DNA from: a virus
Strand: one strand, 5' to 3'
DNA: 64,000 bases
Virus record (IMG/VR): IMGVR_UViG_3300044712_001062
Span: 1 to 64,000 of that record
Shown: piece after piece, positions 688-37,545 of the stretch
How the letters are laid out: each line of letters starts with the position of its first letter
Position numbering within the stretch: position 1 is the stretch's first letter
Made by a program: the position numbers and the translations under genes
Notes under the pieces: model-generated
Seen by the model: only the letters and a program-made list of their open reading frames with translations
What the model was told of the DNA's origin: nothing
Databases searched by the model: none

Positions 688-773
688 TTTATATAAAGTT
701 ACTAACATATTTGTATGTGCACAAGGGCAAAATAAAAAGGAAAGGAACCTTTCTTTTTCGTTTTGTTTAGAGT
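688..773 (+). ncRNA. dispersed hairpin small-RNA unit, copy 1
   Basis: TTTATATA-11nt-ATATTTGTATGTGC, hairpin GGGCAAAAT AAAAAGGAAAG..CTTTCTTTTT CG TTTTGTTT, then AGAGT. Confidence 0.7.
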
Positions 774-824
774 AGTTTTAAATTGTTGTGCGAACTATTT
801 TGAAAAAAGTAAAGGTTTGATTTA

Positions 825-1586
825 TTAGTATTTTTCATGCTTTGCGAATAACTGTTTTGGAATCTTAAATACTGTGTGATCCCAACTGTAATCGCTGCCA
901 TCGACTTTGAATAAAACCCATCCATTGTCTGGTCGTTGTTGACTTTTCAAACCCATGTGGCCATCAAGACCTTTCCAACATGGCGTGTTAATGGTGATTG
1001 ACGAACTTGAACCACTATATGCGAAATTGTGGGTGTGACTTCTTATGAATATATCTGCATCATCACCCTGTAATTTAAGATTGTTGACGAACTGCTGCTG
1101 TGAGTTATAACGATTTCCTGGATTACCACTATATGAAGCGTGATGCTGGATGTTCATTGTGATGTTTTCAAAATCGGCATCTCCAAACCAACCATACCAT
1201 TCACCGCCCATCATTTCGCAGCAAATTTCATCAGCACTTGGATTATGCCCAGTATGATATCCACTACCTTCAGTAAAGATCCACTCACCCCCGCAATCGA
1301 TCATCTTCAAACATTGTCTGGCGATATCACATTGTACAAGGTAATCACTCACCAAAACATCCTTCCCGCGACCTTTATAATTTAGGCCATCAACGATATC
1401 CCCGTTGCAAATTACAGCATCAACATGCCCAATTTGCTTGCACATCCCTGTCCAATAACTCCATACAAATTCCTGTAATTTAGACTGCTTCAATTCCAGA
1501 TCACGATCTTTATGATAATATCGTGGTGGCAAAAGCCCAAACATCGATCCGCAATGTAAATCTGATATTCCAAGTATTTTCATCAA
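825..1586 (-). CDS. calcineurin-like metallophosphoesterase
   Basis: SDLH, NGDIVDG, HH and SHTH metal-binding motifs. Confidence 0.85.
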   Translation of the reverse strand: MMKILGISDLHCGSMFGLLPPRYYHKDRDLELKQSKLQEFVWSYWTGMCKQIGHVDAVICNGDIVDGLNYKGRGKDVLVSDYLVQCDIARQCLKMIDCGGEWIFTEGSGYHTGHNPSADEICCEMMGGEWYGWFGDADFENITMNIQHHASYSGNPGNRYNSQQQFVNNLKLQGDDADIFIRSHTHNFAYSGSSSSITINTPCWKGLDGHMGLKSQQRPDNGWVLFKVDGSDYSWDHTVFKIPKQLFAKHEKY

Positions 1587-1589
1587 GAT

Positions 1590-1838
1590 TCAAACCTCAA
1601 TCCTATGAACTCTTTTTGGATAAGTCCCACCCAATCGAATTTTCAACTTGGAAGATCCCGTGGGCATTCTAGTGATCGAATCCACACCAATTTTATAAAT
1701 ATCCCTAAAATAATCCAGATGATAAACGATATCACTCTTAACTCCATCCTGGACAATACTAACAGTCGCAGTGGAATCTTCCCCTTCATGTTCATAAACA
1801 TCAATGATATATTGAGTGTGTAATGTCATAATAATCAC
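1590..1838 (-). CDS. hypothetical protein
   Basis: 82-aa ORF coupled to both neighbours. Confidence 0.55.
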   Translation of the reverse strand: MIIMTLHTQYIIDVYEHEGEDSTATVSIVQDGVKSDIVYHLDYFRDIYKIGVDSITRMPTGSSKLKIRLGGTYPKRVHRIEV

Positions 1839-2182
1839 ACTATCTCATCATCAACAATCCACAACCACTGGGTTGCGTATTCTGGATATGTTGCGATATT
1901 TCCACCAGCGGTAACAACCTTAAACATCATGCGATACATACCGCTTTCATCGCTCTCACCAGCACCCCACCAATACTCAACAACACCAGTTCCAGCATCT
2001 ACTATGGAACATGGTTGATCATAGATTGTAGGGGTCGTCTCGCCATCCTTAACCATCGTGAACAAAACAGTCTGACCGGTCAAATCGTGGTCAACATTAC
2101 CTTGAGTATCAATATTCCAGTCCATAATTTGATAACTCAACGGAACCGTGTCACCCTTCTTAAATCGCATCGTATAAGTCAT
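1835..2182 (-). CDS. BppU N-terminal-like baseplate/virion protein
   Basis: KKGDT..DLTGQTVLFTM..GVVEY.W...D.SGMY..F.V...TYP pattern; start moved to MTYTM, just downstream of a TATA box. Confidence 0.7.
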   Translation of the reverse strand: MTYTMRFKKGDTVPLSYQIMDWNIDTQGNVDHDLTGQTVLFTMVKDGETTPTIYDQPCSIVDAGTGVVEYWWGAGESDESGMYRMMFKVVTAGGNIATYPEYATQWLWIVDDEIV

Positions 2183-2281
2183 TATATAATAATGAGCGAA
2201 TGAAATATATAAAGTTAACCCCCATGCAATAATGAAAATTGACTGCTGCAAAATAGATTACAAGAAACAACAATGAAAATC

Positions 2282-2365
2282 ACTCTAAACAAAATGAAAG
2301 GAAAAAGGTTTCCCTTTTATCTTGTCCTTTGGGCACATACAAATATATTTTATCCACATATAAAA
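2282..2365 (-). ncRNA. dispersed hairpin small-RNA unit, copy 2
   Basis: minus strand: TTTTATAT-11nt-ATATTTGTATGTGC, hairpin GGACAAGAT..ATTTTGTTT, then AGAGT. Confidence 0.7.
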
Positions 2366-2385
2366 CTAATGTGGGAATATACCAT

Positions 2386-2886
2386 TTACTTTTTCTTACT
2401 TTTAATCAATAACATGTCTACTCTATTGGCCATTTCACGCGCATGAGAACTCATATATTTGTAATCTCTTGCTCTATGCATATACCGAGTGTAATTGAAA
2501 TTTGGATCAAAGTCTAATAATTCTTGGGCTTTCTCGGGATGTAATTGTTGAAATTTAGACCACTCATAGGCGCATTCCTTACCATACTTCAATATTGCTT
2601 TCAATTTTTGATCCCAAGTTTGGAATTGCGATTGTTTTTGAGAAGCTTCCTGGATAGATTTATTTAGTTTTTCTAACCCATGCTTGATGATCATTTTGTC
2701 CAATAACAATTTTTCATTTTCATCAAGATTTAATTCAATAGCAATATTTTTTACATAGGCATTTTTGATCATTTGCCTATTAGTGATGTTTAGATAATTT
2801 CTTAATAGTTTGTCAACTACTTGTTTGGGATCAAGTTGTTTATCTTTTAAGAGTTTCCCAAATTCAGGGCGAATATCAATTTTCAT
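2386..2886 (-). CDS. hypothetical basic protein, possible ribbon-helix-helix-like N-terminus
   Basis: 166-aa ORF; N-terminal strand followed by QVVDKLLRNYL helix. Confidence 0.6.
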   Translation of the reverse strand: MKIDIRPEFGKLLKDKQLDPKQVVDKLLRNYLNITNRQMIKNAYVKNIAIELNLDENEKLLLDKMIIKHGLEKLNKSIQEASQKQSQFQTWDQKLKAILKYGKECAYEWSKFQQLHPEKAQELLDFDPNFNYTRYMHRARDYKYMSSHAREMANRVDMLLIKSKKK

Positions 2887-2935
2887 GATCGGTGATTATT
2901 TTTCAAAATTGAAAGTTTCAAAAGTAATTTTTTTT

Positions 2936-4138
2936 TTATTCGTCAAGGAATATGTCGTTTCCTCGAATTGTAATCATTCCATATCTTTTCATTTCTTCAA
3001 GTTTATCATAGAGTGATTGTGCGGACATCTGAACTTGGAAACATACCGTATTAAGATAATTTCTTGTTATCATTATACGACCATCATCTGTGGTAGTTCC
3101 ATAAACCCTAATCAAATTAATTACTTGTTTAAGATCTGGGCCGGTAATGATATCCCTACGCCATTCGAATTGCTTATTTAATATGTCCATTAACCCTTTG
3201 TCTTGAACATCAAGCATTATACTAGTATCTGCACCATATTTTGCCAAATGCCAACCAAGGATCAGTTTGGCGTATGATGAAATTTCATAAGGTTCAATAT
3301 CAAATTTTTCATAAAGGTGGAATACTGATTCATCATAATCGATATTTTCAATAGAATTAAAACTTGTTGTCCACGTCTTAATGGCATCTTTCATCTCGTG
3401 GATTTGCTTAACGTCGGGTCGTTTATTTCGAGAATCCCAGACAGCCCTACGTAAATCACTTTTCAATTTGGCATCTGGTAAATTCAATAAAAAGCAAATA
3501 CGACGACCCATACCACTGCCCAATTCATATTTTGCAGGCTGAACACCGCCCCACAAAGTACAATATGTTTGATATTCTATATCTCCACCAGCAACAGATT
3601 TGCGAACTTCTCCATGATCAAGGGCTGCCAATAATTGAGACTCCATCTGGCTATTAAATGATTGGCCCATTGCATCAGTAATTCCTTTGAATTCATCCAT
3701 CATCAAAAAGCCTTGGCCATGTGTTTCGAATTTACCTTCTCTTTTTACATAATTACCATGGCTTGGTGTATAAGTTCCAACTAATGATGCTTCATTGACA
3801 TTTTGACACTGAATCATTTCATAATTACAATTGCCGAATATAGAATAGTCATCCATTCCCATATTTTTCAAGTAATATGATTTCATGTATCCAGGAGGAG
3901 CCACAAATATAATATGTAATCGCATATTTGGAATTGCATAAGACTCCCAATAGACCTTTCGGCCTTGATTCATGACATTAAAAGCGTGTATTGCATAGGA
4001 GCAAACATATGGCGGGGCATAAGTTTCATAGGATAAAGTCCCTCTCTGTTCCAGATTATCTAATATCATCTGCATTACATCTGGATTATTGGACACTTTA
4101 CTCATTAAGAAACTCCAACTATACGTTTGACTTATCAT
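2936..4138 (-). CDS. MCM-like AAA+ helicase (ATPase domain plus probable winged helix)
   Basis: HIIFVAPPGYMKS Walker A, ASLVG, FLMMDEF Walker B, LLAALDHG, GRRICF arginine-finger region; start moved to MISQT. Confidence 0.75.
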   Translation of the reverse strand: MISQTYSWSFLMSKVSNNPDVMQMILDNLEQRGTLSYETYAPPYVCSYAIHAFNVMNQGRKVYWESYAIPNMRLHIIFVAPPGYMKSYYLKNMGMDDYSIFGNCNYEMIQCQNVNEASLVGTYTPSHGNYVKREGKFETHGQGFLMMDEFKGITDAMGQSFNSQMESQLLAALDHGEVRKSVAGGDIEYQTYCTLWGGVQPAKYELGSGMGRRICFLLNLPDAKLKSDLRRAVWDSRNKRPDVKQIHEMKDAIKTWTTSFNSIENIDYDESVFHLYEKFDIEPYEISSYAKLILGWHLAKYGADTSIMLDVQDKGLMDILNKQFEWRRDIITGPDLKQVINLIRVYGTTTDDGRIMITRNYLNTVCFQVQMSAQSLYDKLEEMKRYGMITIRGNDIFLDE

Positions 4139-4214
4139 TATATAAAATATGCGGTTATAATTCTCCAAGTAGTTATATACAAATTTGATATAAAGTAAAT
4201 GAAATTTGCATATA

Positions 4215-4559
4215 ATGAATGTATTAATGATTGCAGGACCACCAACATTTACAGATCGTGAAGTCATAGCCGATAACCTAATAGATGCCATGTTATGGGC
4301 AAATCCCTCACAAATAATTACCAGTGATCAGTTAGGTGTTGATGAAATCATAACACAATTAGTCACATCATATACTAATATAAAATTTTCAAAATACTAC
4401 ATATATAAGGATAAATTTGGAAAATCGGCATTACCAATCGCATTATTTGAAATGACCGCAAAAGCCACTCACATATTAATCTTTGATGATAATAAAATGA
4501 CTGACGTTGAATATTTCGCCAATAGAAATGGCTTGATGATTATGAAAGTTAAAGTATAA
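4215..4559 (+). CDS. SLOG-superfamily (YspA/DUF2493-like) protein
   Basis: MIAGP.TFTD.E, IITSD..GVD, KFGKSA, ATHILIFD pattern. Confidence 0.6.
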   Translation: MNVLMIAGPPTFTDREVIADNLIDAMLWANPSQIITSDQLGVDEIITQLVTSYTNIKFSKYYIYKDKFGKSALPIALFEMTAKATHILIFDDNKMTDVEYFANRNGLMIMKVKV

Positions 4560-8659: not shown

Positions 8660-9349
8660 TCACACAAAGTTGGCCATTTCATTATGAGTCTGGGTAAGTT
8701 GCTCAATAGTTGATTTGAGTTCCTCGGCACTTGCTCTCAATTCCTGATTATAACTTTCCAATTCAATTATTTTATTTTCCAATTCAGTTTCAAGTTCAAA
8801 GCGATAAAGGACATGCCCAAGATGTTTTCCCAATGTCCTTAACATATCGCAAATTTCAGGATCCACTGATGCGTGATTTTCATAAGCAGCAAGATTTATA
8901 CAACCCCTCACTCTATTGTCAAAAATAATTGGTATGGATAAAAAAGTTTCAATATCGCCCAATAGCATTGATACTCGTTGATTAACCTTGGAGTAGTTCG
9001 TCAAATATATTACTTTATTAAAATGAAAAAGGTCATGCAACTCTGGGCGATCATTGCACAAATATTTTAATTCTTCTTTTAAATTTCCAGGTATAAAACG
9101 AGTTGCCACAACTTTAATATTTTTATCCTTAACAAGATATATTGAGCCAATATCAAAGTTTACCAATTCTACACAAGAATTCAACAAATTTTGTATTAAT
9201 TCCTTCTGACTATCACTTTCATTTGCCTTAATGATAATCGTATTAAAGGTTCGCAATCTCTTGCGCTCTTTATCCATTATTGTTTCAGTAGAGTTTAATT
9301 TATGTGTATAGGACTCTAGTGCTGAAATCTGATCTGCCAAGGCTACCAT
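8660..9349 (-). CDS. stand-alone GAF-domain protein with signalling coiled coil
   Basis: FDIGSIYLV..FLSIPIIFDNRVRGCINLA GAF signature; C-terminal ELESYNQELRASAEELK helix; no kinase domain. Confidence 0.8.
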   Translation of the reverse strand: MVALADQISALESYTHKLNSTETIMDKERKRLRTFNTIIIKANESDSQKELIQNLLNSCVELVNFDIGSIYLVKDKNIKVVATRFIPGNLKEELKYLCNDRPELHDLFHFNKVIYLTNYSKVNQRVSMLLGDIETFLSIPIIFDNRVRGCINLAAYENHASVDPEICDMLRTLGKHLGHVLYRFELETELENKIIELESYNQELRASAEELKSTIEQLTQTHNEMANFV

Positions 9350-9414
9350 AAAATTATCGAAATAGTGAATGCTTACTTTATATATAGGGTGTGGATATAT
9401 CGATCAACCATAAA

Positions 9415-9506
9415 TTTATATATAGTTAAGGATATATTTGTATGTGCAGCGGGACAATCGAAAAGGAGAAAGAGAAATCTTTTTTCTTCTTTGTTTGTTT
9501 CAAGGT
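9415..9506 (+). ncRNA. dispersed hairpin small-RNA unit, copy 3
   Basis: TTTATATA-11nt-ATATTTGTATGTGC, hairpin closed by a GAAA tetraloop (AAAGA GAAA TCTTT), then TTTGTTTC AAGGT. Confidence 0.65.
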
Positions 9507-9898: not shown

Positions 9899-9950
9899 AA
9901 TAAAATATTAGTCCTTGGTATAAAAATAAGTAGCGTAAAATTTTTCTATT

Positions 9951-13505: not shown

Positions 13506-13512
13506 TCTATTG

Positions 13513-25943: not shown

Positions 25944-25944
25944 A

Positions 25945-27782: not shown

Positions 27783-27881
27783 GGTTTTATATGTACATAT
27801 ATGAGGGTAGAATATATAAAACCTTGGATGTGACAACAATTTACGAACGAAAAAAGATTAATAATTTAAAAATTTACTACT

Positions 27882-27992
27882 TCAGCACTTCTTGCCTTTA
27901 CAAGGAACAACTTCTTTTTTTCCTTTTTTCATGGGGAACTTCTTCTTGCCCTTGTCATCAGTAGATTTGTTGGCTCCAGTTTTACATGCCAT
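27882..27992 (-). CDS. 36-aa Lys/Cys-rich basic peptide (not in the ORF track)
   Basis: MACKTGANKSTDDKGKKKFPMKKGKKEVVPCKGKKC*. Confidence 0.55.
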   Translation of the reverse strand: MACKTGANKSTDDKGKKKFPMKKGKKEVVPCKGKKC

Positions 27993-28000
27993 AACATAAA

Positions 28001-28754
28001 TTAATTATTGACTTTATTTGAACGCAGTGGATCGTCGATTAGCATGAAGTGATCTTTTGCACTTTCTATATACATTTTAGTCTTGCACTTTTTACACTGC
28101 CCACTAATAGATATTAAATTGCAATCATGATCTTGCTTAAAATTCACTGGAATCATACCATCACAAAACTGACAATAGGTGAACATCGCACTACTTTCCT
28201 TAAAAAGTTTGATTTTATACATCATAAGAATTCTCCAAGTAAAGAAATTAAGTTATAGATCTATTTCTGAATACTGATCACTATAGTCTATTGGGTTTGT
28301 AAAGTGATATTCACAATGAGGATCTTTACAGTAGGTTGCCAGAGTGTCCAAGTTCAAATATAGATCCCTTCCACAGTTTGGACATTCCATTTTTAAATTT
28401 ATATCTGGTGACATATTTAATTATAAAATTTGATGTTATAAAAATATGCCGATCAGATTGTGTATATTATTACAAGTCTTTTCCAGTTTCAAACAACATG
28501 GTATTAAATGGTAAAAAGTAGTGCTCAAATCCAATTAATTTAACATACTGCCGAATCATATTAAATGATGAACTCGCACTACAATAATCACCTTGCGTTG
28601 TCCATTGTTCAATTGCCTTGCGCATAATATCTAAATGTTTATTAAATGTCTCATAATCGCATTTTCGAATCAATAAAACTTGATCGGTGAAAATTTCTCC
28701 TTTGAAATACTCACCAATCACTATACATTTATATTCATTTATATTTTCAATCAT
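28001..28754 (-). other. hypothetical ORFs (28001-28225 zinc-ribbon-like; 28470-28754)
   Basis: CxxC...CxxC in the first ORF, which also carries the TTGGAGAA leader. Confidence 0.55.
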
Positions 28755-28772
28755 AATAAAAAAGTGTGATGA

Positions 28773-29498
28773 TCACTCTGTTTCGATTCTTGGGGCTATA
28801 AAGTAATATCCACAAGGATTTCCAGCAATGTTCAAAGCAATCCTACATGGTCTATCATCGCTAAATGAAAAGTCTACTGTACCTTTTACAATTTTAAATG
28901 CTGTATTGATGTAGTCCATGGAATACAAACACCATTGATCATTGTCTTTTACAATACCATTGTCAATTACAAAATTCAACACATAATCATTGTCTTGCTG
29001 ATCAAGTGATTTTATTACAGTTTTATCATTAGTAACTATGAATTTAACTTTATCAGCAATCATCGATGCGCCTTTTAAATACTTACGCATATCACTGGAT
29101 GAAATCAATACACTAGCATTCATTGACATTTCATAAAGATTGTTGACAATGGGATCTTTTTTGATATTTTCATTATCCAGGCTTTTCATGACCATTTCAT
29201 ATTTTCCACTTCGAAAAGTCAATTTATTTTCATCCTGGATAATGGTAACAAATCCATAACACATCTCCATAAATGGCTTGAGTTTTTCCAAATCCAAACA
29301 AATAACTTGATTAATTAGATTATATTGCTCAAAGGAGGTTCTTGGATACTCAAAGTCAATTAACATGACATTTGCCAAATCACTGGTTTTACACCAAATT
29401 CTATCAGGAGTAATATGCAAGCGAACTTCATTACGCACTTTACAAATTAAGTTTATAAAATCTCTAAAATCCAAATACTTTAAAATAGCACTTTGCAT
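28773..29498 (-). CDS. pcn: PCNA sliding clamp
   Basis: SDLANVMLIDF..P..SFE.Y, YSMDYI, SDDRPC...YFIAPRIE. Confidence 0.9.
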   Translation of the reverse strand: MQSAILKYLDFRDFINLICKVRNEVRLHITPDRIWCKTSDLANVMLIDFEYPRTSFEQYNLINQVICLDLEKLKPFMEMCYGFVTIIQDENKLTFRSGKYEMVMKSLDNENIKKDPIVNNLYEMSMNASVLISSSDMRKYLKGASMIADKVKFIVTNDKTVIKSLDQQDNDYVLNFVIDNGIVKDNDQWCLYSMDYINTAFKIVKGTVDFSFSDDRPCRIALNIAGNPCGYYFIAPRIETE

Positions 29499-29951
29499 AA
29501 TAATGATTAGTCATTTAATTATAAAATAGTTTGTATTATAGTGATTTATTTGGATAATGCCCAGTTCGAATATATATCATGAGAACATCCAAATTAACAT
29601 TACCTTGTTCAATCACTTTAATGGAATTTTTAATCCTCGAACGATAATTGGCGATTTCAAAAACACTACAATCAAAAGATGAAATTACATCTGGGCAATG
29701 ATTAATTTTCATCTAAAAAGCCCCAATAGATAATTTGCCCATTCAGGGAGAGTAATATTAAATGTCTTACATGATTTTCCAATTGTAAAATATCCAATAT
29801 ACATTCCAGAAAGGAAAAATAATAACATAAATGCTATAATTTCCGTGATCATTATAAACTCCTGGACATCAAATAACCCATTACAATCCCTGAAATAAAT
29901 GACGATATTAATACTATACAAACTATAAATATAATTTCCAAAATGAACACC

Positions 29952-30578
29952 TCAATTAAATTTACCTACTTCATTTCCATGTGAATCCCAATTTGGAAAT
30001 CTCTCCCTAGCAAATAATTCAATTCTCGTTACATCCCCATATAAAATTTCAAGGCGTTTTCTTACTTCATCAGGCTTTCTGGAATGCTCACGAATTGGAG
30101 AAATAACAGTTGACCTAATTGATGCATTGGCACGCCTTACACCCTTCCCGCGTATGCCAAGCAATACAAATTCAGCATTGGACCGGGTATGATTGCCCAT
30201 GCCCATGAAATCTCCATGCGTAATCTCATCACCTTCAACTGATGTATGCTGCAAATAATAATTGCGAGTTAAATGATTATTTGGAGTTGTATCAGAAGAA
30301 AATGGATTTTTATTGGTTTTGACCCAAGTAAAGGCAACTGTTTTGAATTTGTATCCCCATTCTGCCATCAATACAATTGCATTTGGTAACATTGGTGCTG
30401 TGGTCCACATAAATAAAACTGAATCTATTGCTGCAATTTCATCTATATAATCTTTCATATCTGCTAATTCTTTAATAGACATGCAAGGATATTTAAATTC
30501 AGCACCACGGTTTCCAGCAATTGCCTTATCATTGTATGACCACGGCGGGTCACATAGTATTAATTTATATTCATTCAT
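29952..30578 (-). CDS. MT-A70 family N6-adenine methyltransferase
   Basis: ILCDPPW, LFMW, WGY...FTWVK, HSRKPD, IELFAR. Confidence 0.93.
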   Translation of the reverse strand: MNEYKLILCDPPWSYNDKAIAGNRGAEFKYPCMSIKELADMKDYIDEIAAIDSVLFMWTTAPMLPNAIVLMAEWGYKFKTVAFTWVKTNKNPFSSDTTPNNHLTRNYYLQHTSVEGDEITHGDFMGMGNHTRSNAEFVLLGIRGKGVRRANASIRSTVISPIREHSRKPDEVRKRLEILYGDVTRIELFARERFPNWDSHGNEVGKFN

Positions 30579-30972
30579 CTAATAATCCTCCACACCAACA
30601 TGTAAATGGATGTGTTCGTAACTGTGCGCCACCATACATAGGTGCTGTAAACATTCCAATCTCTTCTGCTTGTTTTTGAATTTTATAAGTTTCATCATCA
30701 ATACAAAAAACCTCACCACAATCTCTACAAATCATCTTAATTGGCATTTTAAATCACCAACAACTCGTGTCACTAATTTCAATTCGCTCGCCGCAACCTC
30801 GACATCTTACATATACATTACTTGCGATTCCATTTGGAAAGAATATAATTTCAATTTCCCCACAGTGTTTTTGTCTAAATGCATTGAACCTTTCTTCTTC
30901 AAGATCATTTAACTTGAAAGTTATCATGTATAATATGTATATTAGTGATTGTATAAAAAAGATTGCAGGAAA

Positions 30973-31779
30973 TCATATATTATTCATAACTCCCATACAC
31001 GCAGTAATGAAATATATTCCAAATAAAAATGCTGGATTATATTGTTTGGTTTTTATGAAGTAACCCACCCATATTAAATTTGAAACAATCCATATAGAAA
31101 ATCCATACAATCTCAAATCAGATGTAGATGCAGTAACTAAAAAAGCGCCAATTAATGATAGAGTGGTTGAATAAATTGTAGGATCTCTTATATTCATAAT
31201 ACAAATATAATTTTAAAATATATATTTGTTTTGTAAATGATCCTTAACTATTCATTGAATTATAATAGCCAATGACAAGCATTATGGCCATCACAAATGT
31301 TGGAAATATCAATTGCCAAAGTTCCAGATTAATTTTCAAATATGCATTTAATAAAAACATCGCACATTGGATGTATACCAGGATAAATGCTGGTGAAATA
31401 CTTGAGTTTCTAAACGAATTATGGTAATTGTAAGTTACTGAATGTGGTTTTTGCTCATCTGACATTTGGATTCTCCACGTAAAAATAGAAAAAGTTAAAT
31501 TTAACTTATAACGGGATCTACAAGTTCATTAGGTGTAATGGCTTCATTGTATTCTTTAATGGCCATTTCGCGAAGTTCATTAAATGCAGCAAGGAAATTG
31601 GTCTCTTCTTCTTCTGTTATACTCTGAAGATCGTTGCATGATTTTAGATAACTAATTTCAAGATCTTTCTTCTGAATTTCATCAGTAATAGCATCAAGGT
31701 CTACTGAAGAGACGTAAAAATGGTTCATAAAAACAATCAGTGTTCTGGCAGTTTCTTTGGATAAATTCCATTGAATCAT
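30973..31779 (-). other. three small ORFs (two membrane proteins, 30973-31197 and 31244-31465; acidic 31501-31779)
   Basis: hydrophobic segments; ORF track. Confidence 0.55.
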
Positions 31780-31946
31780 AGTAATACGTTGCAGGGGTGA
31801 TCATTTAAGTCTTTCCATTTAATTGCAATTGGCGATTTGTATGGTATATAAAATTTATAAAAGATTGATGATGTAATCACCAGAGCGCGAGTTATAAACT
31901 GGTGCAGGGAATGTTAAAATAGAAAGGTTGAATGATATTACTATTT

Positions 31947-32831
31947 TTAAATGTATAAATTATAATCCCAACAATCCTTTACCACACCTTCTTCGACTTC
32001 CAATCGAATATCCTCTTCATTAACCTGATATAATCCTGCTTCTTCAGGAGTTTTACAGCACGAACACTTCAAATATTTATTTTCTGTGCATGTTGGTGGA
32101 TATTCCTTGACATTTTGCAAATCATATATTTTTTTCTCCACCGTAGCATCCCGCTTAAAGTCTAAATAATTAATTTCTTTGGTTTGGGGATTAATCAAAC
32201 AACCACAAACAATATCCCAATCTTTGAACTCATCTAAATTTTTCAAGATAATTTTATAAAATGTCAATTCATCCTTGATGTTATCCTGGGTAAACTTACT
32301 TTGTATAGAACTTTTACCCGTCTTATATTCGTCAATAATCAATTGTTTGCGACCTTCTACTACACCATCCACAATTTTATTGAATGTTCGTTCACTCAAG
32401 GTAAAGCCAACATCCTTGGCCATATAAGATAGCATACCAGGAGATACTCTATCATTCCGATCAATGACACCACGAATCTTAAGTCCATGATGATAATACA
32501 TTTGCTCGGTGGATACTGGCAAAAAGTATTCACGACCACCCTTAACCAATCGCTTATATTCTTGATCAATAAACCACTTAAGCATATCAACTTCATATGG
32601 TGCAAATGATGGATGTATGAAACTATACCAATTGACTGGATCTACTTCCAATGCGTATTTGTGGAATGTTTCGGCAAAATTATGAAAACGGCTTCCCACG
32701 GCCATTGAAAAATTCTGCGGATCCTTTTCACCAAGCACATAATTATGATAATATTTTTTTGGACAATACTTCATCAAACTCAAGCGACTTTTGCTTGTAT
32801 AATCCTTATATTGATCTACTTCATCACTCAT
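31947..32831 (-). CDS. PD-(D/E)XK exonuclease, Cas4/RecB-like
   Basis: SKS.L....CPKKYY, GS.FH, RGVIDR, DEYKTG, C-terminal Cys cluster. Confidence 0.88.
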   Translation of the reverse strand: MSDEVDQYKDYTSKSRLSLMKYCPKKYYHNYVLGEKDPQNFSMAVGSRFHNFAETFHKYALEVDPVNWYSFIHPSFAPYEVDMLKWFIDQEYKRLVKGGREYFLPVSTEQMYYHHGLKIRGVIDRNDRVSPGMLSYMAKDVGFTLSERTFNKIVDGVVEGRKQLIIDEYKTGKSSIQSKFTQDNIKDELTFYKIILKNLDEFKDWDIVCGCLINPQTKEINYLDFKRDATVEKKIYDLQNVKEYPPTCTENKYLKCSCCKTPEEAGLYQVNEEDIRLEVEEGVVKDCWDYNLYI

Positions 32832-32858
32832 GATCGTAAAAAAGATAAATGGAGATGC

Positions 32859-33680
32859 TCAAAAGAACTTTACGCCGGTTCGCTCACTAATAGCAGCCTT
32901 GATAGAATCAAATGTTGGATTCTCAATCTCAAATCCCTTAAGATTACCATAATTAGTGCCAGTCACTTTAAAGATTCGCTTATCTCCAATCATCATGACC
33001 TCGCCATAAAATTCAAAGAGATAACCACTACCTTTCTTTGCATCCATTATTTTGATGCCAGTATCTCCTTCATTATTAAACACACTTTTCATCCACATCG
33101 TGCAAACCAAATTCATCTTCGTTTGCTGGAGTAATTCACCAATGGTAAGATATTTGGCCTTTGCCTTTCCATACTCAAACATATATGGCTTTCCAGTCTT
33201 TGGATCTTTCTTGACAGTTGGTGAGTTTTCAAACCAATCCGCGACCCATTGTGACACCGATGAATAACTATCAAATACAATGGTTCCCTTTTCAAGATTC
33301 TTAACTTTCTGCAAAACATCGTGAATATAATCAATGGCCTTGACCTTATCAAAATCACCATTCTCATCACGAACTTTCTGCATGATATTTACATAATAAA
33401 CATCAGTGAGATCTCCCATCTGTTTAAGTGTAATGTCCTCTTTATTTTCAGTGCTAAAGATGTAAATTGGCCTTGGAACATTAAAAGCCAGCGTACTCTT
33501 GCCGCATTTGTCATCTCCATATATCCCAAGTTTAAAAGATCTCACACCAGGAATATTTACCGCTGGTTCAAAATAATCCCCAAATGGATTAGAAGATCCT
33601 ATACCCTTCTCAACTTTTGGAGAATCAACAACCTTCGATGGCGCTGCCTCCTTAACATCGCTTTCTTCCCATTTCGTCAT
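32859..33680 (-). CDS. AAA_24/Sak4-like RecA-fold ATPase
   Basis: IYGDDKCGKST Walker A, TIVFDS Walker B; lies between the exonuclease and the OB-fold gene. Confidence 0.8.
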   Translation of the reverse strand: MTKWEESDVKEAAPSKVVDSPKVEKGIGSSNPFGDYFEPAVNIPGVRSFKLGIYGDDKCGKSTLAFNVPRPIYIFSTENKEDITLKQMGDLTDVYYVNIMQKVRDENGDFDKVKAIDYIHDVLQKVKNLEKGTIVFDSYSSVSQWVADWFENSPTVKKDPKTGKPYMFEYGKAKAKYLTIGELLQQTKMNLVCTMWMKSVFNNEGDTGIKIMDAKKGSGYLFEFYGEVMMIGDKRIFKVTGTNYGNLKGFEIENPTFDSIKAAISERTGVKFF

Positions 33681-33983
33681 GTTAAAATTCCACTACTAAA
33701 TTTTTAGTTTGTAGAATATAATGTTGTCTTTGATTAGATATAAAGATAGTGTATACAATGTAAGTTATAAAAGTTAAAATCGAAAAATAAAATGTTTAAT
33801 CATCAAAGCGCGAAAAAATAATAAAAAAAGTTAAAGTATTCAATATGCATAGAGTGCTTTAGTGATGTTCAAAATTGTTGTTGATAAAGTAAGCAACTCA
33901 TCAAAATCACCACTAATTGATTCTCCCTTCATTCTTTCATAAAGAATATTGAGAATTTCATCACCAATATCATTCATAAAAGT

Positions 33984-34184
33984 TTATTCCTTTAATTTCC
34001 ACTGACCACACTTGAAATTCTGTGGATAATCTTCAATTTGTTCCCATTTAGGATTCAATGTGCATTTAAACCTCTTCGTATTATCACTCCCACCAAATCG
34101 ATGCTCACAAGTAATGCAAAATTTATTACCATTGGTGGCAGCCTTTGCCGCTTCAACCAATTCACTCTCATTTTTAACAGCCAT
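33984..34184 (-). CDS. small Cys-rich protein
   Basis: CITCEH..C..C..W. Confidence 0.55.
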   Translation of the reverse strand: MAVKNESELVEAAKAATNGNKFCITCEHRFGGSDNTKRFKCTLNPKWEQIEDYPQNFKCGQWKLKE

Positions 34185-34221
34185 GATATATTACCTTTAT
34201 ATTTTTCAAAAAAATTAAGGA

Positions 34222-35424
34222 TTAGAGCAATCCTTTGTCGCGAAGTCTTTGAAGCACTGCATCTTTACCGGCATCACGGTTACGGATGACTCCCCAAAGT
34301 TCGTAATACTGGATCATTTCATCCTTATCGTTTTTGAACTGCATCTTACGTCCAACAACAACAACTTCATCACCAATGTTCAGTTCTTCAACATCTTCAA
34401 CAACCGGCAGATAATTAGACTTCATTCCAATTCCGCCGATCAGGTCATCACTATTAATTCTGATTCGTGCTGAAAGACCATCGCCCTCAATCTTCTTCTG
34501 CTGGATAGAACCTGAAGTCGCAAATACAGTTCTTGGATCGGCATCCATCAAAGCATTGAGGTCCATCCAGTGTTCAGTAGTCTGAAGCACTCGCATTGCC
34601 GTTTCATATGCCTTGTCGTAAACACCCTTATCTTCATGACCAAGATCAAATATACTCCAGGTCGTCCCATACTTATTTGCATAGAGAATGCTCTTGCGAC
34701 CAACCTTTGGAACATGACGGAAATCCTTGTTATCTCTATCCCATGGCAAGTTCGCAATTACAAAATCTTCCTTATTTTCATCAACAGTCTTAACAATCTT
34801 ACCATCTTTACCGACAGCACACTGTTCAACTGCAGTGATGATCATTGGGACTTTAACACGAAGAACGGTCTCAATTTCCTCGCCAAACTTCTTATTCTCC
34901 TTGGTTACCGTTGCACCACTTTCATCCTTGTAAGTTGTCTCACGCTCGCTTTCCAGGGGAATTGGATAATCCTTACCGTCCTTTGACTTACCAATCTTGA
35001 TTTTACCACTGGTGATCCACTGGTTAATCATTTCTAGATTTGGAGCATGATTCTTCTCTACATACTCACCAGTTTCGACATCCTTCTCTTTCCAAGTTCC
35101 ACCATTCAAATATCTGTAATACCACTTGCGAATGTCATTCTTCTTGTAGTCGTTCTTATCTTCATACTTGGAAACACCAAGAACAATTGCATATAGCCCC
35201 TTGTTCTTACCTTTCTCAAATTCACTCTTCGCGTATTCAAAGCCACTTGGTCTGAACAAACTTGACACATTGGCAGTTACAATTTTCTCAACTTCAGCAT
35301 CGATGTGTTCAGCATCATAAAACGTGGCCAATTCCACCTTAATTTTTGCTGAATATTCTTCGATCTTCTTCTTAACTACAGCCTCATCAACTGTATATCT
35401 CTCGGCAATTGCTTTATAATCCAT
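34222..35424 (-). CDS. probable single-stranded DNA-binding (OB-fold) protein
   Basis: C-terminal OB-like LNIGDEVVVVGR..YELWGVI; distinct codon usage; upstream of the Sak4-like and exonuclease genes. Confidence 0.55.
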   Translation of the reverse strand: MDYKAIAERYTVDEAVVKKKIEEYSAKIKVELATFYDAEHIDAEVEKIVTANVSSLFRPSGFEYAKSEFEKGKNKGLYAIVLGVSKYEDKNDYKKNDIRKWYYRYLNGGTWKEKDVETGEYVEKNHAPNLEMINQWITSGKIKIGKSKDGKDYPIPLESERETTYKDESGATVTKENKKFGEEIETVLRVKVPMIITAVEQCAVGKDGKIVKTVDENKEDFVIANLPWDRDNKDFRHVPKVGRKSILYANKYGTTWSIFDLGHEDKGVYDKAYETAMRVLQTTEHWMDLNALMDADPRTVFATSGSIQQKKIEGDGLSARIRINSDDLIGGIGMKSNYLPVVEDVEELNIGDEVVVVGRKMQFKNDKDEMIQYYELWGVIRNRDAGKDAVLQRLRDKGLL

Positions 35425-35585
35425 GATATAGATCCTTAACTTTCTCGATTTCTTACATGCACAATTGAATGTGCGAGGTTTTTAAAACCCAATTTAGTTT
35501 GTGGGTATTACTAATGTTTGTGTTGAAGTTATAAAAAGATGATCATAGATGCCCATTAAAAAGTATAAAATTGTTAAAATTTAAC

Positions 35586-36171
35586 CTAATATTTCTCGAA
35601 CCCGCATACCTTACCAGTTCGATCCACCATTTTTCCCTTCAACGAACAATATGATATAGTGATCAATTTACCACACCTCGAAATATATTCCATGCCAACC
35701 CTATCTATATACCCACAATCACCACAACATGAAGGCCCAACATATTGATCGCTTTGAAATTCAACGCCAATTTGCTCAATCATATTCCACCTATTTTTCA
35801 ATCTTAATTCCAGTATATCGGTAATTTTCAATTCCTTTCATTGCTTCATCAGTTCGCTTCATATAATAAGCCTTGTTGAAAACCTTAACCCTAAACAGCC
35901 AGTGTTCTTGCCTAACCATAATTTCATACAAATAGTGCCTGGCTAAATGTCTTGTTATACCAAACTTATCTATAAAATCAGTAGTTTGAAGCACCCAGTC
36001 CCATTCCCACTCATTATGATAAAAATCCATAAATCTCTGATACAAACTTCCGTCAAAAAAACAGCAAGGAACCAACTCAACTCTTCGTTTCTTACACGAA
36101 CCATCTTCCTTTATATACTTGCAGAACTTACATTGTGGTTCCACGATATTAGTATTTAAGTTCTTCTTCAT
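35586..36171 (-). other. two Cys-containing ORFs (35586-35831; 35791-36171 with possible winged HTH)
   Basis: CxxC motifs; TTDFIDKFGITRHLARHYL helix-turn-helix-like segment. Confidence 0.55.
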
Positions 36172-36286
36172 TACCTTTATATATCCAATTAATAGTATTT
36201 AAAGTTTACCATCCAATTTATATATAGTAAATGAATTTGACACTTTTATTTAAAGATTGTGCAATGTAATGACCTTAAACACTACA

Positions 36287-36383
36287 TTTTTATACAAGTT
36301 GTTACATATTTGTATGTGCCACAAGGTAACAAGACTACTAAAGCAAGGAGTGGGATCCTTTCTTTATTTGTTTTGTTTAGAGT
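36287..36383 (+). ncRNA. dispersed hairpin small-RNA unit, copy 7 (longer stem)
   Basis: TTTTTATA-11nt-ATATTTGTATGTGC, AACAAGAC/GTTTTGTT, TAAAG/CTTTA, AAGGA/TCCTT, then TAGAGT. Confidence 0.7.
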
Positions 36384-36429
36384 ATGTGGTAATCGACTTG
36401 TTTTCCCGAAATTAACCATGTAGATTACA

Positions 36430-36502
36430 TTCTCCATATGGGCGTGGGGTTTTCCAAGTTTCAAAAAAGTTTGTATATGGGCTTTGAGTTCTCCACATGG
36501 GC
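36430..36502. repeat. three direct repeats with consensus TTCTCCAYATGGGC
   Basis: 36430-36443, 36470-36482 (degenerate), 36489-36502. Confidence 0.55.
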
Positions 36503-36517
36503 ATTATATTTTAGATA

Positions 36518-37378
36518 TTATATTTTTCTTTTTTGGCTTTTGATATTTTTTTGTTTGCGAAGATCGATCATTGTGACATTTGTTGGCGTGGTGAAAGTTT
36601 TGAAACCCCTGCTACACACCGTATGGAAGTAGTTTCGGCTAACCTTGACACTGGGAAACTGCTCAACAAACGCATGGTATATGGCATATTCGACAACTTC
36701 ATCTATATCATATTCAATGCCGAAGTCCCGGACAAAGTCCCTTATGCGTTCGCTCTTGAAGCCTGGGCCATTATCCTCGATGGCCAATGAAGCGAGAAAT
36801 TTGTAAAATTCATCAAGGCGCTCCAAAATTATACACCTCGAAATATAAAAATTGAACCTATATTAATCATCTATAGGAAAGTGCTCATTACCTATATATA
36901 AATGTTTGGTAACAATGTTACACGATTATTTACAATTTGTGAGTAAAAAATGAAAAATTTAAATGGTCAATCTGATCATTTCACTCATGCCGAATTTTGT
37001 GTCGTGGTGATATGAGCAAACTTTAGCATTGAATGAGATTTTATCCCCAGGTTTGATATCATTAAGCATTAAATATGAAAGTTGATTGACATTTTGAATG
37101 TAGGTGTGATTAGTCACATATTCACCATCGATCATCAAGTCGCCCACCAGTGCATATTTTGAATTGTTACGGTAATGGACACAACCCTTTTTAATGAATC
37201 GCCCAGTGCAATTTACCCAACCCTTATCAAGGAATTTCTTGAGGTATTCACGGCGCTTAAACGAATCATTAGTCACACTTTCATGAGATCCACAGACACA
37301 CCCGTTAATTTGAAATTCATCCTCGATGGTAGTTTTTCCACATTTTACACATTTGACAATTGGTATGCCTTTAATCAT
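36518..37378 (-). other. two hypothetical ORFs (36518-36826; 36959-37378 zinc ribbon plus OB-like)
   Basis: GAGGTG SD; CxxC..CxC; DIKPGDKISFNAKVCSY. Confidence 0.55.
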
Positions 37379-37459
37379 GAATGAAATGTTAGCAGCAAAA
37401 CTATTTAAGTTTAACTATTTGTATGCGGCAAAAGTTTCCTAACAAAAGATCCCAGAAAT

Positions 37460-37545
37460 ACTCTAAACAAAACGAAAGAAAAGAAATTTCTTCTTTCTGT
37501 CTTGTTCGTGGGGTACATACAAATATATCTTAACTTATATAAAAA
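37460..37545 (-). ncRNA. dispersed hairpin small-RNA unit, copy 8
   Basis: minus strand: TTTTTATA-11nt-ATATTTGTATGTAC, GAACAAGAC/GTTTTGTTT, GAAAGAAGAA/TTCTTTTCTTTC, then AGAGT. Confidence 0.7.

Follow-up and report, generated by a model that had tools for sequence, protein, structure and literature searches.

Convergent pairs of promoter-hairpin units as candidate boundaries of exchangeable gene slots in a virus that probably infects an archaeon

Phage morons, or insulated cassettes, are promoter-gene-terminator units inserted between core genes. In T4-type phages, small dispersed repeats that combine a strong host-type promoter with a stem-loop have been described as promoter-early stem-loops (PeSLs); they are intergenic, flank nonessential or orphan genes, and are tied to gene replacement among related viruses (PMC2839356, PMC4122927). 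The tailed archaeal virus HF2 (Haloferacalesvirus) carries dispersed, conserved intergenic promoter repeats in which a BRE and a TATA box at about -26 accompany a start-site block of strong conservation, at positions conserved among related viruses; some fire against the local gene direction, long counter-transcripts exist, and in one atypical repeat, IR4.5, a 9-bp inverted repeat replaces the gamma motif (PMC8707807). PeSLs and HF2 repeats appear to be the nearest known analogues of the units described here, which are likewise small, dispersed, and intergenic, are conserved in position among relatives, and resemble the former in composition and gene neighborhood and the latter in promoter layout.

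The sequence analyzed here (the window) covers positions 1 to 64,000 of a 135,061-bp record of a viral genome of ~134.9 kb that assembles as a circle. An initial annotation of the window had described eight ~110-nt units in strict alternation, + - + - + - + -. All eight were recovered at those places and in that order (nhmmer E values of 3e-21 to 8e-27), with inner gaps of 1.47, 3.9, 1.4, and 1.0 kb between convergent partners and of 7.0, 8.0, and 13.1 kb between divergent neighbors (Table 1). Also as described, the cargo genes of these pairs lie on the minus strand, and nhmmer and covariance-model searches detected no additional unit between 37.6 and 64 kb. Nine more units lie past the window (67278+, 67860-, 82522+, 82953-, 90107-, 95762-, 104192+, 104513-, and 124094-). 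The covariance model recovered 17/17 units of the whole genome, whose order, + - + - + - + - + - + - - - + - -, resolves into seven convergent pairs of close neighbors plus three minus copies that stand alone. Alternation, strict inside the window, is therefore a strong rule rather than a strict one, since the lone copies break it farther on, whereas pairing continues genome-wide. Three pairs are nearly cargo-free (inner gaps of 385, 210, and 125 nt). A search of the units against Rfam gave no family match, and a tRNA search found none in them. Partners are 66% identical, as is the mean over all pairs of units, and no near-identical copies occur among the 17; pair partners are not recent copies of each other.

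Table 1. Units and enclosed cargo genes in the window
Feature	Position	Strand	nhmmer E	Covariance-model score (bits)	Parts and neighbors
Unit 1	678-795	+	7.6e-27	57.1	TATA box 688-695; predicted start near TGC at 718; hairpin ~722-767; tail TTTAGAGT ends at 773; at meeting point of minus block and plus late block, the latter wrapping round the circular genome
Cargo, pair 1	825-2251	-			Calcineurin-like phosphoesterase (825-1586), 82-aa ORF, weak BppU_N-like ORF; TATA box 2213-2206, in-frame ATG ~23 nt beyond, near 2182
Unit 2	2265-2374	-	2.5e-22	58.7	Faces unit 1; directly after stop of upstream gene 2386-2886(-)
Unit 3	9405-9522	+	2.8e-21	35.0	Back to back with TATA promoter of gene 8660-9349(-); head-on to 3' end of deaminase-like gene 9500-9898(-)
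Cargo, pair 2	9500-13344	-			Deaminase-like ORF, SpeD, FeThRed_B-like ORF, NrdD (671 aa), glutaredoxin, small ORF holding the NrdD C-terminal glycyl-radical stretch; TATA box 13374, ATG ~22 nt beyond
Unit 4	13397-13514	-	1.6e-25	52.7	Adjoins stop of gene 13513-13854(-)
Unit 5	21556-21675	+	2.6e-25	48.6	Back to back with minus-strand TATA-plus-ATG start (ORF 21314-21532)
Cargo, pair 3	21982-23018	-			288-aa ORF without family match, 55-aa ORF; TATA-like box 23050, ATG (23018) 23-24 nt beyond
Unit 6	23089-23207	-	1.3e-26	56.6	Begins 9 nt past stop of family B DNA polymerase gene (23216-25510)
Unit 7	36277-36403	+	2.5e-23	45.2	Back to back with promoter region of gene 35791-36171(-)
Cargo, pair 4	36518-37378	-			ORFs of 102 and 139 aa, both without family match; TATA-like box 37409, ATG (37378) 22-23 nt beyond
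Unit 8	37434-37552	-	9.4e-25	62.7	TATA box overlaps stop of ORF 37535-37798(-)

Judged by its motifs, each unit reads as a promoter of the archaeal (TBP/TFB) type. A BRE-like aCAaTAsA motif is followed by the TATA box TTTATATA and, 22 nt past the box, by the putative initiator TATTTGTATG-TGCC; conservation extends no farther than ~10 nt ahead of the TATA box. A leader of 8 to 12 nt separates the TGC start motif from the hairpin, and both the leader, GCCCAAGGAC, and the tail, TTTAGAGT, are conserved across units. Among 48 TATA-like 8-mers located no more than 80 nt ahead of any of 187 predicted starts in this genome, 15 end 20 to 23 nt and 20 end 20 to 27 nt before the start codon, the other 16 bins of 4 nt each holding 0 to 3; the 22-nt spacing from TTTATATA to TGC in the units matches this peak. 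In methanogen stable-RNA promoters, which consist of a box A, TTTATATA, and a box B at the start site, the octamer is identical to the TATA box of the units, and a conserved TGC-type start motif likewise lies ~22 nt downstream. The genes under such promoters encode tRNA and rRNA, whereas the predicted product of a unit is a ~60-nt hairpin that has no Rfam match and is not a tRNA.

The hairpin stem spans 17 to 25 bp, pairs an A/G-rich purine arm with a U/C-rich pyrimidine arm, and is followed by T-runs. In all 19 units compared (17 here and 2 on contig L154), the sense strand folded more stably than the antisense strand (mean of -19.1 versus -10.4 kcal/mol; Wilcoxon p = 1e-4), with 72 G.U pairs in sense and 9 in antisense, and 18/19 outscored shuffles that preserved arm composition (mean z = -3.2). 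The mean longest T-run was 5.0 nt in sense and 3.6 nt in antisense, and runs of at least T4 averaged 2.5 and 0.7, respectively. When 43 matches from five genomes and contigs L154 and L256 were placed in a model-fitted alignment, 82.4% of cells were paired, compared with 77.7 ± 0.8% after shuffling (0/500 shuffles as high) and 59 to 69% when slid, and two-sided changed cells numbered 69 versus 38.7; because a low-complexity purine arm pairs with a pyrimidine arm ~78% of the time by chance, this covariation evidence is weakened. The hairpin belongs to the RNA of the promoter's own strand, and its distal stem differs freely from copy to copy. A whole-genome scan for purine-run/pyrimidine-run hairpins returned 15 matches, all at 13 units, and none away from units; promoter and hairpin are obligately coupled. 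In a methanogen, termination efficacy is governed by U-tracts (PMC8716108).

The initial annotation had further proposed that the pair, rather than the single copy, may be the functional unit. All seven plus copies directly precede a minus copy (P = 0.006 on shuffling 7 plus and 10 minus copies), and start-to-start gaps are 0.32 to 4.1 kb for convergent neighbors and 5.7 to 29.7 kb for all others (Mann-Whitney p = 9e-5). Across five genomes, 17 neighbor gaps are convergent, including all 15 of the gaps below 4.7 kb. Four related viral genomes carry the same pairs at syntenic places, and cargo differs between relatives; the pair upstream of a 2318-aa putative tape-measure gene (assigned by a weak PHROG match) is present in G000, G001, G002, G003, and L154. 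With seven pairs among 17 units, and with orientation nonrandom both in the further copies and in relatives, the pair stands as an organizational unit alongside the single copy. It is not obligatory, however: three copies are lone here and several are in relatives, and in the place of the lone 124094- unit G001 has a full pair and G002 only the other member.

Slot contents turn over between relatives. In four sequences nothing lies in the slot ahead of the tape-measure gene; G001 carries a 121-aa ORF there. The RNR/SpeD slot contains a class III NrdD operon and SpeD here and a class I/II-type (class II-like) RNR and SpeD in G002; where this genome has the NrdD operon, a relative has a Ribonuc_red_lgC/TSCPD protein. 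The syntenic counterpart of pair 4 in G002 encloses five unrelated small ORFs. The cargo of pair 1 also lies inside the syntenic pair of G001, and in G002 the phosphoesterase/BppU-like cassette lacks flanking units and runs opposite to its orientation elsewhere with respect to the late block. Among the three roles first proposed for the pairs (facing replication primers, DNA looping or insulation, and ends of exchangeable modules), the last fits this turnover best.

With genes called by a simple ORF model and transcription units delimited solely by strand, gaps, and TATA boxes, the units fall at transcription-unit junctions and are directed away from long core gene blocks. Minus units adjoin the stops of upstream genes. 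Behind seven units (9405+, 21556+, 36277+, 82522+, 90107-, 95762-, and 104513-), a start codon lies ~60 to 125 nt away, in most cases preceded by a TATA-like box. Three junctions have a single unit, and the block end at 88.3 kb has none. The cargo of pairs 1 to 4 has a TATA-like box 22 to 24 nt ahead of its ATG; this spacing is 16 nt in the pair at 67.3 to 67.9 kb. Cargo in at least five of the seven pairs thus appears to have its own TATA box, is probably leaderless, and on these predictions does not need the unit promoter.

Our preferred reading is insulation at the level of transcription: the units may be self-terminating mini transcription units that form boundaries around exchangeable slots, a model to which we assign an even probability. 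A strong TBP/TFB-type promoter would fire a short RNA consisting of the leader and the hairpin; since this RNA would run into several T-runs, the archaeal termination signal, it would stop after roughly 55 to 80 nt. A unit at the 3' end of a block would point in the direction of travel, and its hairpin and U-tract would halt the block transcript; at the 5' end, a unit would stand back to back with the block promoter and fire outwards. With both block ends marked outward, the end-markers of neighboring blocks would face each other as a convergent pair, and the space between them would be shielded from transcription entering from either side. Such a slot would be permissive, so that self-promoted accessory genes could reside there and be exchanged over evolutionary time. 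Because cargo transcripts would leave through the weaker antisense direction of a unit, the slot would be shielded against entry and not against exit, and any benefit of entry-only shielding is conjecture. Two features sit poorly with the boundary model: the hairpin lies downstream of its own promoter, though a pure terminator needs none, and the constant retention of an outward-firing promoter is left unexplained.

A promoter always coupled to a hairpin found nowhere else, pairing selected on the RNA strand, a leader and tail conserved more than a terminator requires, and cargo with separate promoters would also be expected if the units were genes for a trans-acting small hairpin RNA, for example one that regulates or one that serves as a decoy for a nuclease or defense system of the host. 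The RNA would then be the function, and placement at junctions and in pairs would be secondary, reflecting free intergenic space and ancestry. We consider this unlikely: it predicts neither the 15/15 convergent close neighbors nor the direction of units away from core blocks, and, given the free variation of the distal stem, a single function would have to be served by 17 different RNAs. Leader-complementary sites were not enriched in a crude exact-word look, and the absence of an Rfam family match also counts against it. The units could instead be recombination substrates, an archaeal-virus counterpart of PeSLs, with homologous exchange between dispersed copies moving or replacing the genes that lie between them and close direct repeats lost by deletion, leaving only inverted close neighbors. 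The differing cargo of syntenic slots (RNR types, unrelated small ORFs, empty versus filled), the inverted cassette in G002, and the Sak4-like annealing protein, PD-(D/E)XK exonuclease, and resolvase-like protein encoded by the virus are consistent with such a role, as is the recombination reported for PeSLs as promoter-plus-stem-loop repeats flanking ORFans (PMC2839356; PMC4122927). Avoidance of deletion would, however, permit divergent close pairs too; copies that are ~66% identical, with short exact stretches, would be poor substrates; and partners are not homogenized. Inversion or excision joints at pairs 3 and 4 were absent from the assembled contigs of one run, which hide rare variants. 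Recombination as the primary role therefore seems quite doubtful, and it is better seen as a consequence compatible with the boundary explanation than as an alternative to it.

Two inverted ~110-nt copies around unrelated cargo, together with the three nearly empty pairs, bring to mind mobile cassettes or MITE-like elements with terminal inverted repeats, served by a transposase or recombinase in trans. Such an origin is extremely unlikely: partners are no closer than nonpartners and none are near-identical, syntenic pairs persist in relatives whose terminases are only ~50% identical, and the edge of conservation is that of a promoter and not of a transposon end. No target-site duplication was seen by eye at the units, and scans of 200 ORFs (Pfam, PHROGs) turned up no transposase or integrase family. 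Homopurine-rich RNA favors stable RNA:DNA hybrids, and the promoter-proximal RNA of the units is homopurine-rich; moreover, an RNase H gene is present and no primase was recognized in the genome, and at one pair, 82522+/82953-, the two gene blocks diverge, with two short palindromes between the units. These features agree with the suggestion in the initial annotation that facing units supply primer RNAs or R-loops for transcription-primed replication, each pair being an origin, but the suggestion is not supported and we hold it to be exceedingly improbable. Convergent primers would extend toward each other, whereas bidirectional forks require divergent priming; with seven pairs and three lone units, there are more copies than origins would call for, and their tie to transcription-unit ends is too regular; the G.U bias shows selection for an intramolecular RNA hairpin, which competes with hybrid formation, and not the signature of an R-loop; and GC skew falls steadily across the window with no local switch at pairs. 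Nothing ties the pairs to an origin. Were the host bacterial, a bacterial or phage-encoded polymerase would use the motif as its promoter, and the hairpin would be an intrinsic terminator of the ordinary bidirectional kind. RuvB-like, UvrD-like, and Lar-like genes, GGAG-type Shine-Dalgarno motifs ahead of many small genes, and the bacterial bins of two of the three binned terminase relatives accord with this, yet it is very unlikely given that the motif lacks an acceptable -10 hexamer with T at -7, that the sharp 20- to 23-nt TATA-to-ATG spacing is the archaeal leaderless pattern, that Pfam and PHROG scans revealed no RNA polymerase or sigma family, and that the hairpin has no U-run beyond the stem and is markedly weaker on the opposite strand. 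This large virus probably infects an archaeon: it encodes a histone-fold gene, a TrmB/MarR-type regulator, and an ERCC4 nuclease, its closest PolB matches are haloarchaeal tailed viruses (25% identity), and one TerL homologue lies on a contig binned to Methanospirillum.

Compared with known systems, the proposed arrangement resembles morons in placing self-promoted accessory genes, shielded from read-through, between core transcription units. A moron has its own single promoter and terminator, whereas here the shielding would come from a conserved pair that is part of the core blocks on either side, and this pair is retained even around an empty slot. PeSL stems, which often run polyG then polyC, resemble the purine-then-pyrimidine stems of the units (PMC2839356). 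PeSLs have no sequence relationship to the units, and their promoters are of the sigma-70 type, in bacterial myoviruses, rather than of the archaeal TATA/BRE type (PMC2839356). The unit hairpin, being downstream of the predicted start site, would be part of the unit's own RNA. PeSLs recombine, whereas no recombination was observed among the units; PeSL recombination yields excised mini-circles (PMC2839356), from which we infer direct repeats around the excised ORFs, whereas close neighbors among the units are always inverted and convergent. The HF2 motifs are likewise unrelated in sequence, and HF2 promoter activity has been measured, whereas that of the units is predicted; in the available part of that account, the HF2 repeats are 58 or 29 bp with no attached hairpin described, head long transcripts, and are not reported to pair convergently, whereas the units are ~110 nt long, carry a hairpin, and pair convergently (PMC8707807).

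The window carries eight copies of a ~110-nt repeat in which a predicted archaeal-type promoter is joined to an RNA hairpin and T-runs (a unit, signed by promoter direction). Repeat finding and alignment recovered copies of this size and bore out the initial annotation on their positions, their spacing, and their order, + − + − + − + −. Inner gaps between convergent neighbors (pairs) were 1.47, 3.9, 1.4, and 1.0 kb, and divergent gaps were 7.0, 8.0, and 13.1 kb. A profile built from the eight units matched each window copy with E values of 3e-21 to 8e-27, and neither this profile nor a covariance model detected any further copy in the 64-kb window. Across the genome of the record (G000), the profile found 17 units and the covariance model the identical 17. 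Pairing, which the initial annotation had proposed as the possible functional arrangement, extends genome-wide to seven convergent pairs among the 17 units but is not universal, as three minus copies stand alone. When the 7 plus and 10 minus orientations were shuffled, each plus copy directly preceded a minus copy in only 0.6% of shuffles. Start-to-start gaps were 0.32 to 4.1 kb for convergent neighbors versus 5.7 to 29.7 kb for the others, without overlap (Mann-Whitney p = 9e-5). Three slots, the spaces between facing units, are nearly empty (inner gaps of 385, 210, and 125 nt); the 385-nt slot contains a possible ORF of ~62 codons.

Alignment of the 17 genomic units gave the following order, 5′ to 3′: a BRE-like aCAaTAsA, TTTATATA, a 13- to 14-nt spacer, TATTTGTATGTGCC, 8 to 25 variable nt, a purine-rich arm, a loop, a pyrimidine-rich arm, TTTTGTTTAGAGT, and another short T-run. 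The promoter motifs were unchanged in a second alignment adding two units from L154, a metagenome contig. TATA-like octamers before predicted start codons in this genome fell at 20 to 23 nt in 15 of 48 cases, with 0 to 3 in each of the 16 bins outside 20 to 27 nt; a TATA box at 20 to 23 nt is the archaeal leaderless-mRNA pattern. The distance from the end of TTTATATA to a TGC is 22 nt, matching the spacing between TATA boxes and the start codons of leaderless genes, and transcription is therefore predicted to start at the TGC. A sigma-70-like early promoter (−35/−10) was rejected because TTTATATA-N13/14-TATTTGTATGTGCC has no usable −10 hexamer and its spacing is that of an archaeal TATA box to its start. 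Folded from the TGC, all 19 units (17 genomic and 2 on L154) form one long hairpin of 17 to 25 bp with a conserved ACAA...TTGT at its base. The stem is A/G:U/C-rich with many G·U pairs, and its 3′ arm is formed by the U-rich stretch; downstream of the stem come a tail, UUAGAGU, and a further T-run. A bacterial-type intrinsic terminator, defined by a GC-rich stem and a direct U-run outside it, was considered and rejected. C/D-box or H/ACA small RNAs, a CRISPR mini-array, and a binding site for the neighboring TrmB/MarR regulator were considered and rejected, given that boxes and repeats are absent and the stem sequence differs among copies. Rfam 15 gave no match in the window at the gathering score, and ARAGORN found no tRNA or tmRNA genes there.

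Several comparisons indicate RNA-level selection of the hairpin, acting on the same strand as the promoter. The sense fold was better than the opposite-strand fold in 19 of 19 units (means, −19.1 versus −10.4 kcal/mol; Wilcoxon p = 1e-4), with 72 G·U pairs on the sense strand versus 9 on the antisense strand. Because the arms are low in complexity, each was shuffled separately, and 18 of the 19 units beat these shuffles at p < 0.05 (mean z = −3.2). To assess covariation, 43 matches in five genomes, L154, and L256 (a further contig carrying units) were aligned by fitting them to the model; about seven of the 43 were opposite-strand matches at units already counted. Paired cells made up 82.4%, versus 77.7 ± 0.8% in shuffles (0 of 500 reached the observed value) and 59 to 69% with slid partners, and 69 cells were changed on both sides versus 38.7 expected, figures whose weight is limited by the model fit and the low-complexity composition of the arms. 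A whole-genome scan for purine-run/pyrimidine-run hairpins matched 13 units and nothing else, so promoter and hairpin always travel together; hairpin-only or promoter-only copies were not found elsewhere in the genome, and two 10-mer matches inside genes (14409 and 26600) were taken as chance. The longest T-run averaged 5.0 nt on the sense strand versus 3.6 on the antisense strand, and runs of T4 or longer numbered 2.5 versus 0.7. T-runs are the archaeal termination signal (PMC8716108).

The window is bases 1 to 64000 of the 135,061-bp record, whose two ends overlap by ~174 nt. A search of sequencing runs placed the genome in one DNA run, possibly the source of the record, and in no RNA run. 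An independent assembly of that DNA run yielded a contig of 134,917 nt, which matches the record in circularly permuted form. We therefore regard the genome, at ~134.9 kb, as essentially complete and either circular or terminally redundant, although the record is labelled linear and 83% complete. Gene calls come from a simple ORF model, which placed 139 genes on the minus strand and 48 on the plus strand, and transcription units, start sites, and termination were inferred from sequence. The genes form two blocks (see the table). The putative TMP is 2,318 aa long, with only a weak PHROG match.

In the minus block, at most a few bases separate the starts of minus units from the upstream gene's stop codon. 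Cargo, the genes inside a slot, appears independent of the unit promoter because it has TATA-like boxes of its own. Behind each unit that opposes the local genes, a start codon lies within ~60 to 125 nt, in most cases preceded by a TATA-like box. The start of every long block is thus marked by a unit that points away from the block, and most blocks also have a co-directional unit at their end. Convergent pairs around short slots are thus the same geometry as outward-pointing units at both ends of long blocks.

Positions of blocks, units, and other features in the record (locus positions in parentheses)
Feature	Position	Strand	Remarks
Minus block	825 to 82,424	−	Replication and nucleotide-metabolism genes, many small ORFs
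Plus block	83,671 round record end to 401	+	TerL, tail tube proteins, TMP, tail fibres
Unit	2374	−	First cargo gene: own TATA-like box, ATG 22 to 24 nt on
Unit	9405	+	Opposes local genes
Unit	13514	−	First cargo gene: own TATA-like box, ATG 22 to 24 nt on
Unit	21556	+	Opposes local genes
Unit	23207	−	First cargo gene: own TATA-like box, ATG 22 to 24 nt on
Unit	36277	+	Opposes local genes
Unit	37552	−	First cargo gene: own TATA-like box, ATG 22 to 24 nt on
Unit	67278	+
Unit	67860	−	Cargo: TATA-like box to ATG, 16 nt
Unit	82522	+	Opposes local genes
Unit	82953	−
Unit	90107	−	Opposes local genes
Unit	95762	−	Opposes local genes
Unit	104192	+
Unit	104513	−	Opposes local genes
Unit	124094	−
Split RNR	10821-13344	−	671-aa NrdD and separate small ORF
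Small glycyl-radical ORF	ATG near 13344, ending 13048	−	NRDD positions 508-562
Empty slot	82637-82846 (L009:18637-18846)		Palindromes AATACCCGAGATATCGGTTATT, GTGTCCGGAGCCATCGGACA
Small ORFs	37.5-57 kb and 68-82 kb	−	AACTTGGAGAAC-type motif
956-aa ORF	59123-61993	−
1075-aa ORF	62699-64000, continuing to 65926	−	N-terminal Mtd_N domain
GAF, methyltransferase, and glycosyltransferase genes	8660-9349 and 16794-21243	−
Histone ORF	88065-88313 (L010:4065-4313)	+	82 aa, CBFD_NFYB_HMF, E 1.4e-8

Several other features of the genome were recorded. The RNR appears to be split: the large NrdD ORF matches Pfam NRDD positions 1 to 513 of 562, and a separate small ORF, which starts with CxxC...CxxC and has a glutaredoxin gene and the large ORF downstream of it, encodes the glycyl-radical end. 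This small ORF may be a detached or "spare-part" glycyl-radical domain. Where the two gene blocks diverge, a pair flanks an empty slot with two short palindromes, a candidate regulatory or origin region. In contrast to the genes that follow TATA boxes, which are leaderless, dozens of small minus-strand ORFs are leadered and have a conserved ribosome-binding motif ~5 to 8 nt before the ATG. On the coding strand, a second repeat family (D5/D6) has the sequence ...TTTAAAATTATAGAGGTTATTAATCATG. The two very large ORFs differ from their surroundings in GC content (~39 to 44% versus ~33%) and have reversed GC skew, and the Mtd_N domain of the longer one is that of a major tropism determinant; both are fibre-like genes within the "early" minus block. 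A GAF-domain protein, two TylF/Methyltransf_24 methyltransferases, and three glycosyltransferases could possibly modify DNA or the cell surface.

The host is probably archaeal, an indirect assignment from TATA spacing, gene content, PolB, and a terminase bin. The genome encodes a histone-fold protein, a TrmB/MarR regulator, and an ERCC4 nuclease, and its anaerobic NrdD fits an anaerobe. The best matches of PolB are haloarchaeal tailed viruses, at only 25% identity, and a search of viral contigs with PolB as the single query found no relative. Three terminase relatives fell in genome bins, one in a Methanospirillum bin and two in short contigs of bacterial bins, which is not decisive for the host. 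Megablast of 18 kb of the window against a phage collection gave no match. The histone-fold ORF, of archaeal/eukaryotic type, has a homologue in G003, one of the related genomes described below.

Searching metagenome contigs with a promoter-to-tail pattern returned 43 loci, with L154 the sole true relative among them; in viral contigs the pattern gave one weak, unrelated match (L129), and a 14-mer of the promoter core gave scattered single chance matches only. L154, 1,365 bp long, is ~70% identical in the gene adjoining the tape-measure gene and has the same convergent pair at the same place, with the promoter blocks and stem base kept and the stem tops different. Terminase relatives led to four viral genomes, three of them fragments: G001 (66 kb), G002 (127 kb, complete, with terminal repeats), G003 (43 kb), and G004. 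Many terminase homologues of the family are 630 to 950 aa long with the intein domain PF14890 (P0002 to P0004 and others; G003 11444-14287); the G000 terminase (491 aa) is without it. An iterated profile search detected 45 units in the five genomes. With the G002 terminal repeat counted once, neighbors were convergent in 17 cases (inner gaps of 84 to 8,190 nt), divergent in 16 (4.7 to 29.7 kb), and tandem in 9 (5.5 to 19.5 kb). All 15 gaps under 4.7 kb were convergent. Synteny of many pairs makes these neighbor counts non-independent, with ~eight distinct loci underlying them. The pairing seen in the initial annotation thus recurs in the relatives: close neighbors are convergent and orientation is not random.

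Syntenic units were found in G001, G002, G003, and L154, and what they enclose varies. G000, G001, G002, G003, and L154 all have the pair lying upstream of the tape-measure gene; only in G001 does this pair enclose a 121-aa ORF. A phosphoesterase/BppU-like cassette is bracketed by units in G000 (825-2251) and G001. The G002 cassette (120888-122371) is reversed with respect to its upstream neighbor (the homologue of 2936-4291), has no flanking units, and is continuous with the tail-fibre block, an inversion between relatives at a slot bracketed by inverted units in G000 and G001. The SpeD slot holds a class III NrdD operon in G000 versus a 752-aa Ribonuc_red_lgC/TSCPD protein in G002, and in G002 the pair next to the homologue of gene 35791-36171 encloses small ORFs that are unrelated. 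The lone unit at 124094 corresponds to a full pair in G001, and its other member stands alone in G002.

We propose that each unit serves as a boundary marker in the form of a mini transcription unit that terminates itself. A co-directional unit would stop the block transcript through its RNA hairpin and U-tracts, and a back-to-back unit would fire outwards, its own terminator preventing long antisense RNA. Two facing markers would seal the slot against incoming transcription from both sides, so that self-promoted accessory genes could sit there and be replaced. This account appears the simplest for all observations, and we give it about an even chance. It offers no reason for a promoter on a terminator, and cargo transcripts would exit via the weaker side of a unit, which counts against it.

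The hairpins could also form a trans-acting RNA family, which we consider rather unlikely; a crude exact-word search found no enrichment of sites complementary to the conserved leader. Recombination substrates resembling the promoter-plus-stem-loop repeats of T4-type phages (PeSLs) are unlikely as the primary role. Cargo does differ between relatives, but the close copies are inverted and excision of the enclosed ORFs as mini-circles is not expected; such recombination is compatible with boundary marking as its consequence. The initial annotation had proposed looking for inversion or excision reads at the pairs: the contigs of one run over 20001-40000 contained none, only cross-matches between unit copies, and contigs hide rare variants. 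A bacterial host with ordinary terminators is improbable; RuvB-like and UvrD-like genes and the two bacterial bins count against an archaeal one. Mobile cassettes bounded by terminal inverted repeats (a MITE/TIR transposon) are very improbable: partners are not the most alike (66% identity versus an all-pairs mean of 66%), positions are syntenic in distant relatives, no target-site duplication was evident by eye, and no transposase family was found among the 200 ORFs scanned in Pfam and PHROGs. The units are old and maintained, without recent copying. Equally improbable is the replication priming by facing units raised initially. Compared on geometry with a transcription-primed origin (T4 ori or ColE1-like R-loop), the units speak against it in that they converge, form too many pairs, and have a hairpin selected as RNA.

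Extending the boundary-marker account, we tentatively suggest that convergent self-terminating promoter-hairpin pairs are a conserved architecture device of a family of large archaeal tailed viruses that probably infect methanogens. Blocks would carry outward-firing "bookends," and facing bookends would make a transcriptionally sealed slot, a landing pad for accessory genes; the hairpin RNAs might also act in trans, e.g., as host-nuclease decoys. The whole family, in which G000 and one relative are apparently complete, follows a simple, checkable rule: units mark block ends, pointing outward, with accessory genes located between those that face each other. Should the units insulate, they would provide compact archaeal promoter and terminator parts, and accessory genes such as alternative ribonucleotide reductases could be swapped without disturbing core programmes. 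A trans-acting role of the hairpin RNAs would make them a new viral small-RNA family.

To our knowledge, little is known of how transcription is organized in large archaeal tailed viruses. Halovirus HF2 is the only example of tested dispersed promoter repeats in such viruses that we found in the open-access literature. Searches of open-access full text for a described equivalent in methanogen or archaeal viruses likewise turned up HF2 alone, and none yielded an account of such pairs. Among published systems, the T4-type PeSLs and the HF2 intergenic promoter repeats come closest, and the units combine features of both. As described in PMC2839356 and PMC4122927, PeSLs flank orphan genes and mediate modular shuffling; PMC8707807 describes the HF2 repeats as combining a BRE with a TATA box at −26 and a conserved initiator block, their positions being conserved in the genus. 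On these descriptions, the units resemble PeSLs in their attached stable stem-loop but place the hairpin downstream of their own predicted start site, and their promoter is archaeal-type, whereas that of PeSLs is sigma-70-like with an AT-rich upstream region. They resemble the HF2 repeats in being dispersed and intergenic, with a BRE, TATA box, conserved initiator block, and syntenic positions, but differ in the attached RNA hairpin. Compared with both systems as described, conserved convergent pairing around slots is confined to the units. In archaeal viruses, the slots would be the counterpart of PeSL or integron-like cassette sites, with inverted rather than direct repeats as their frame.
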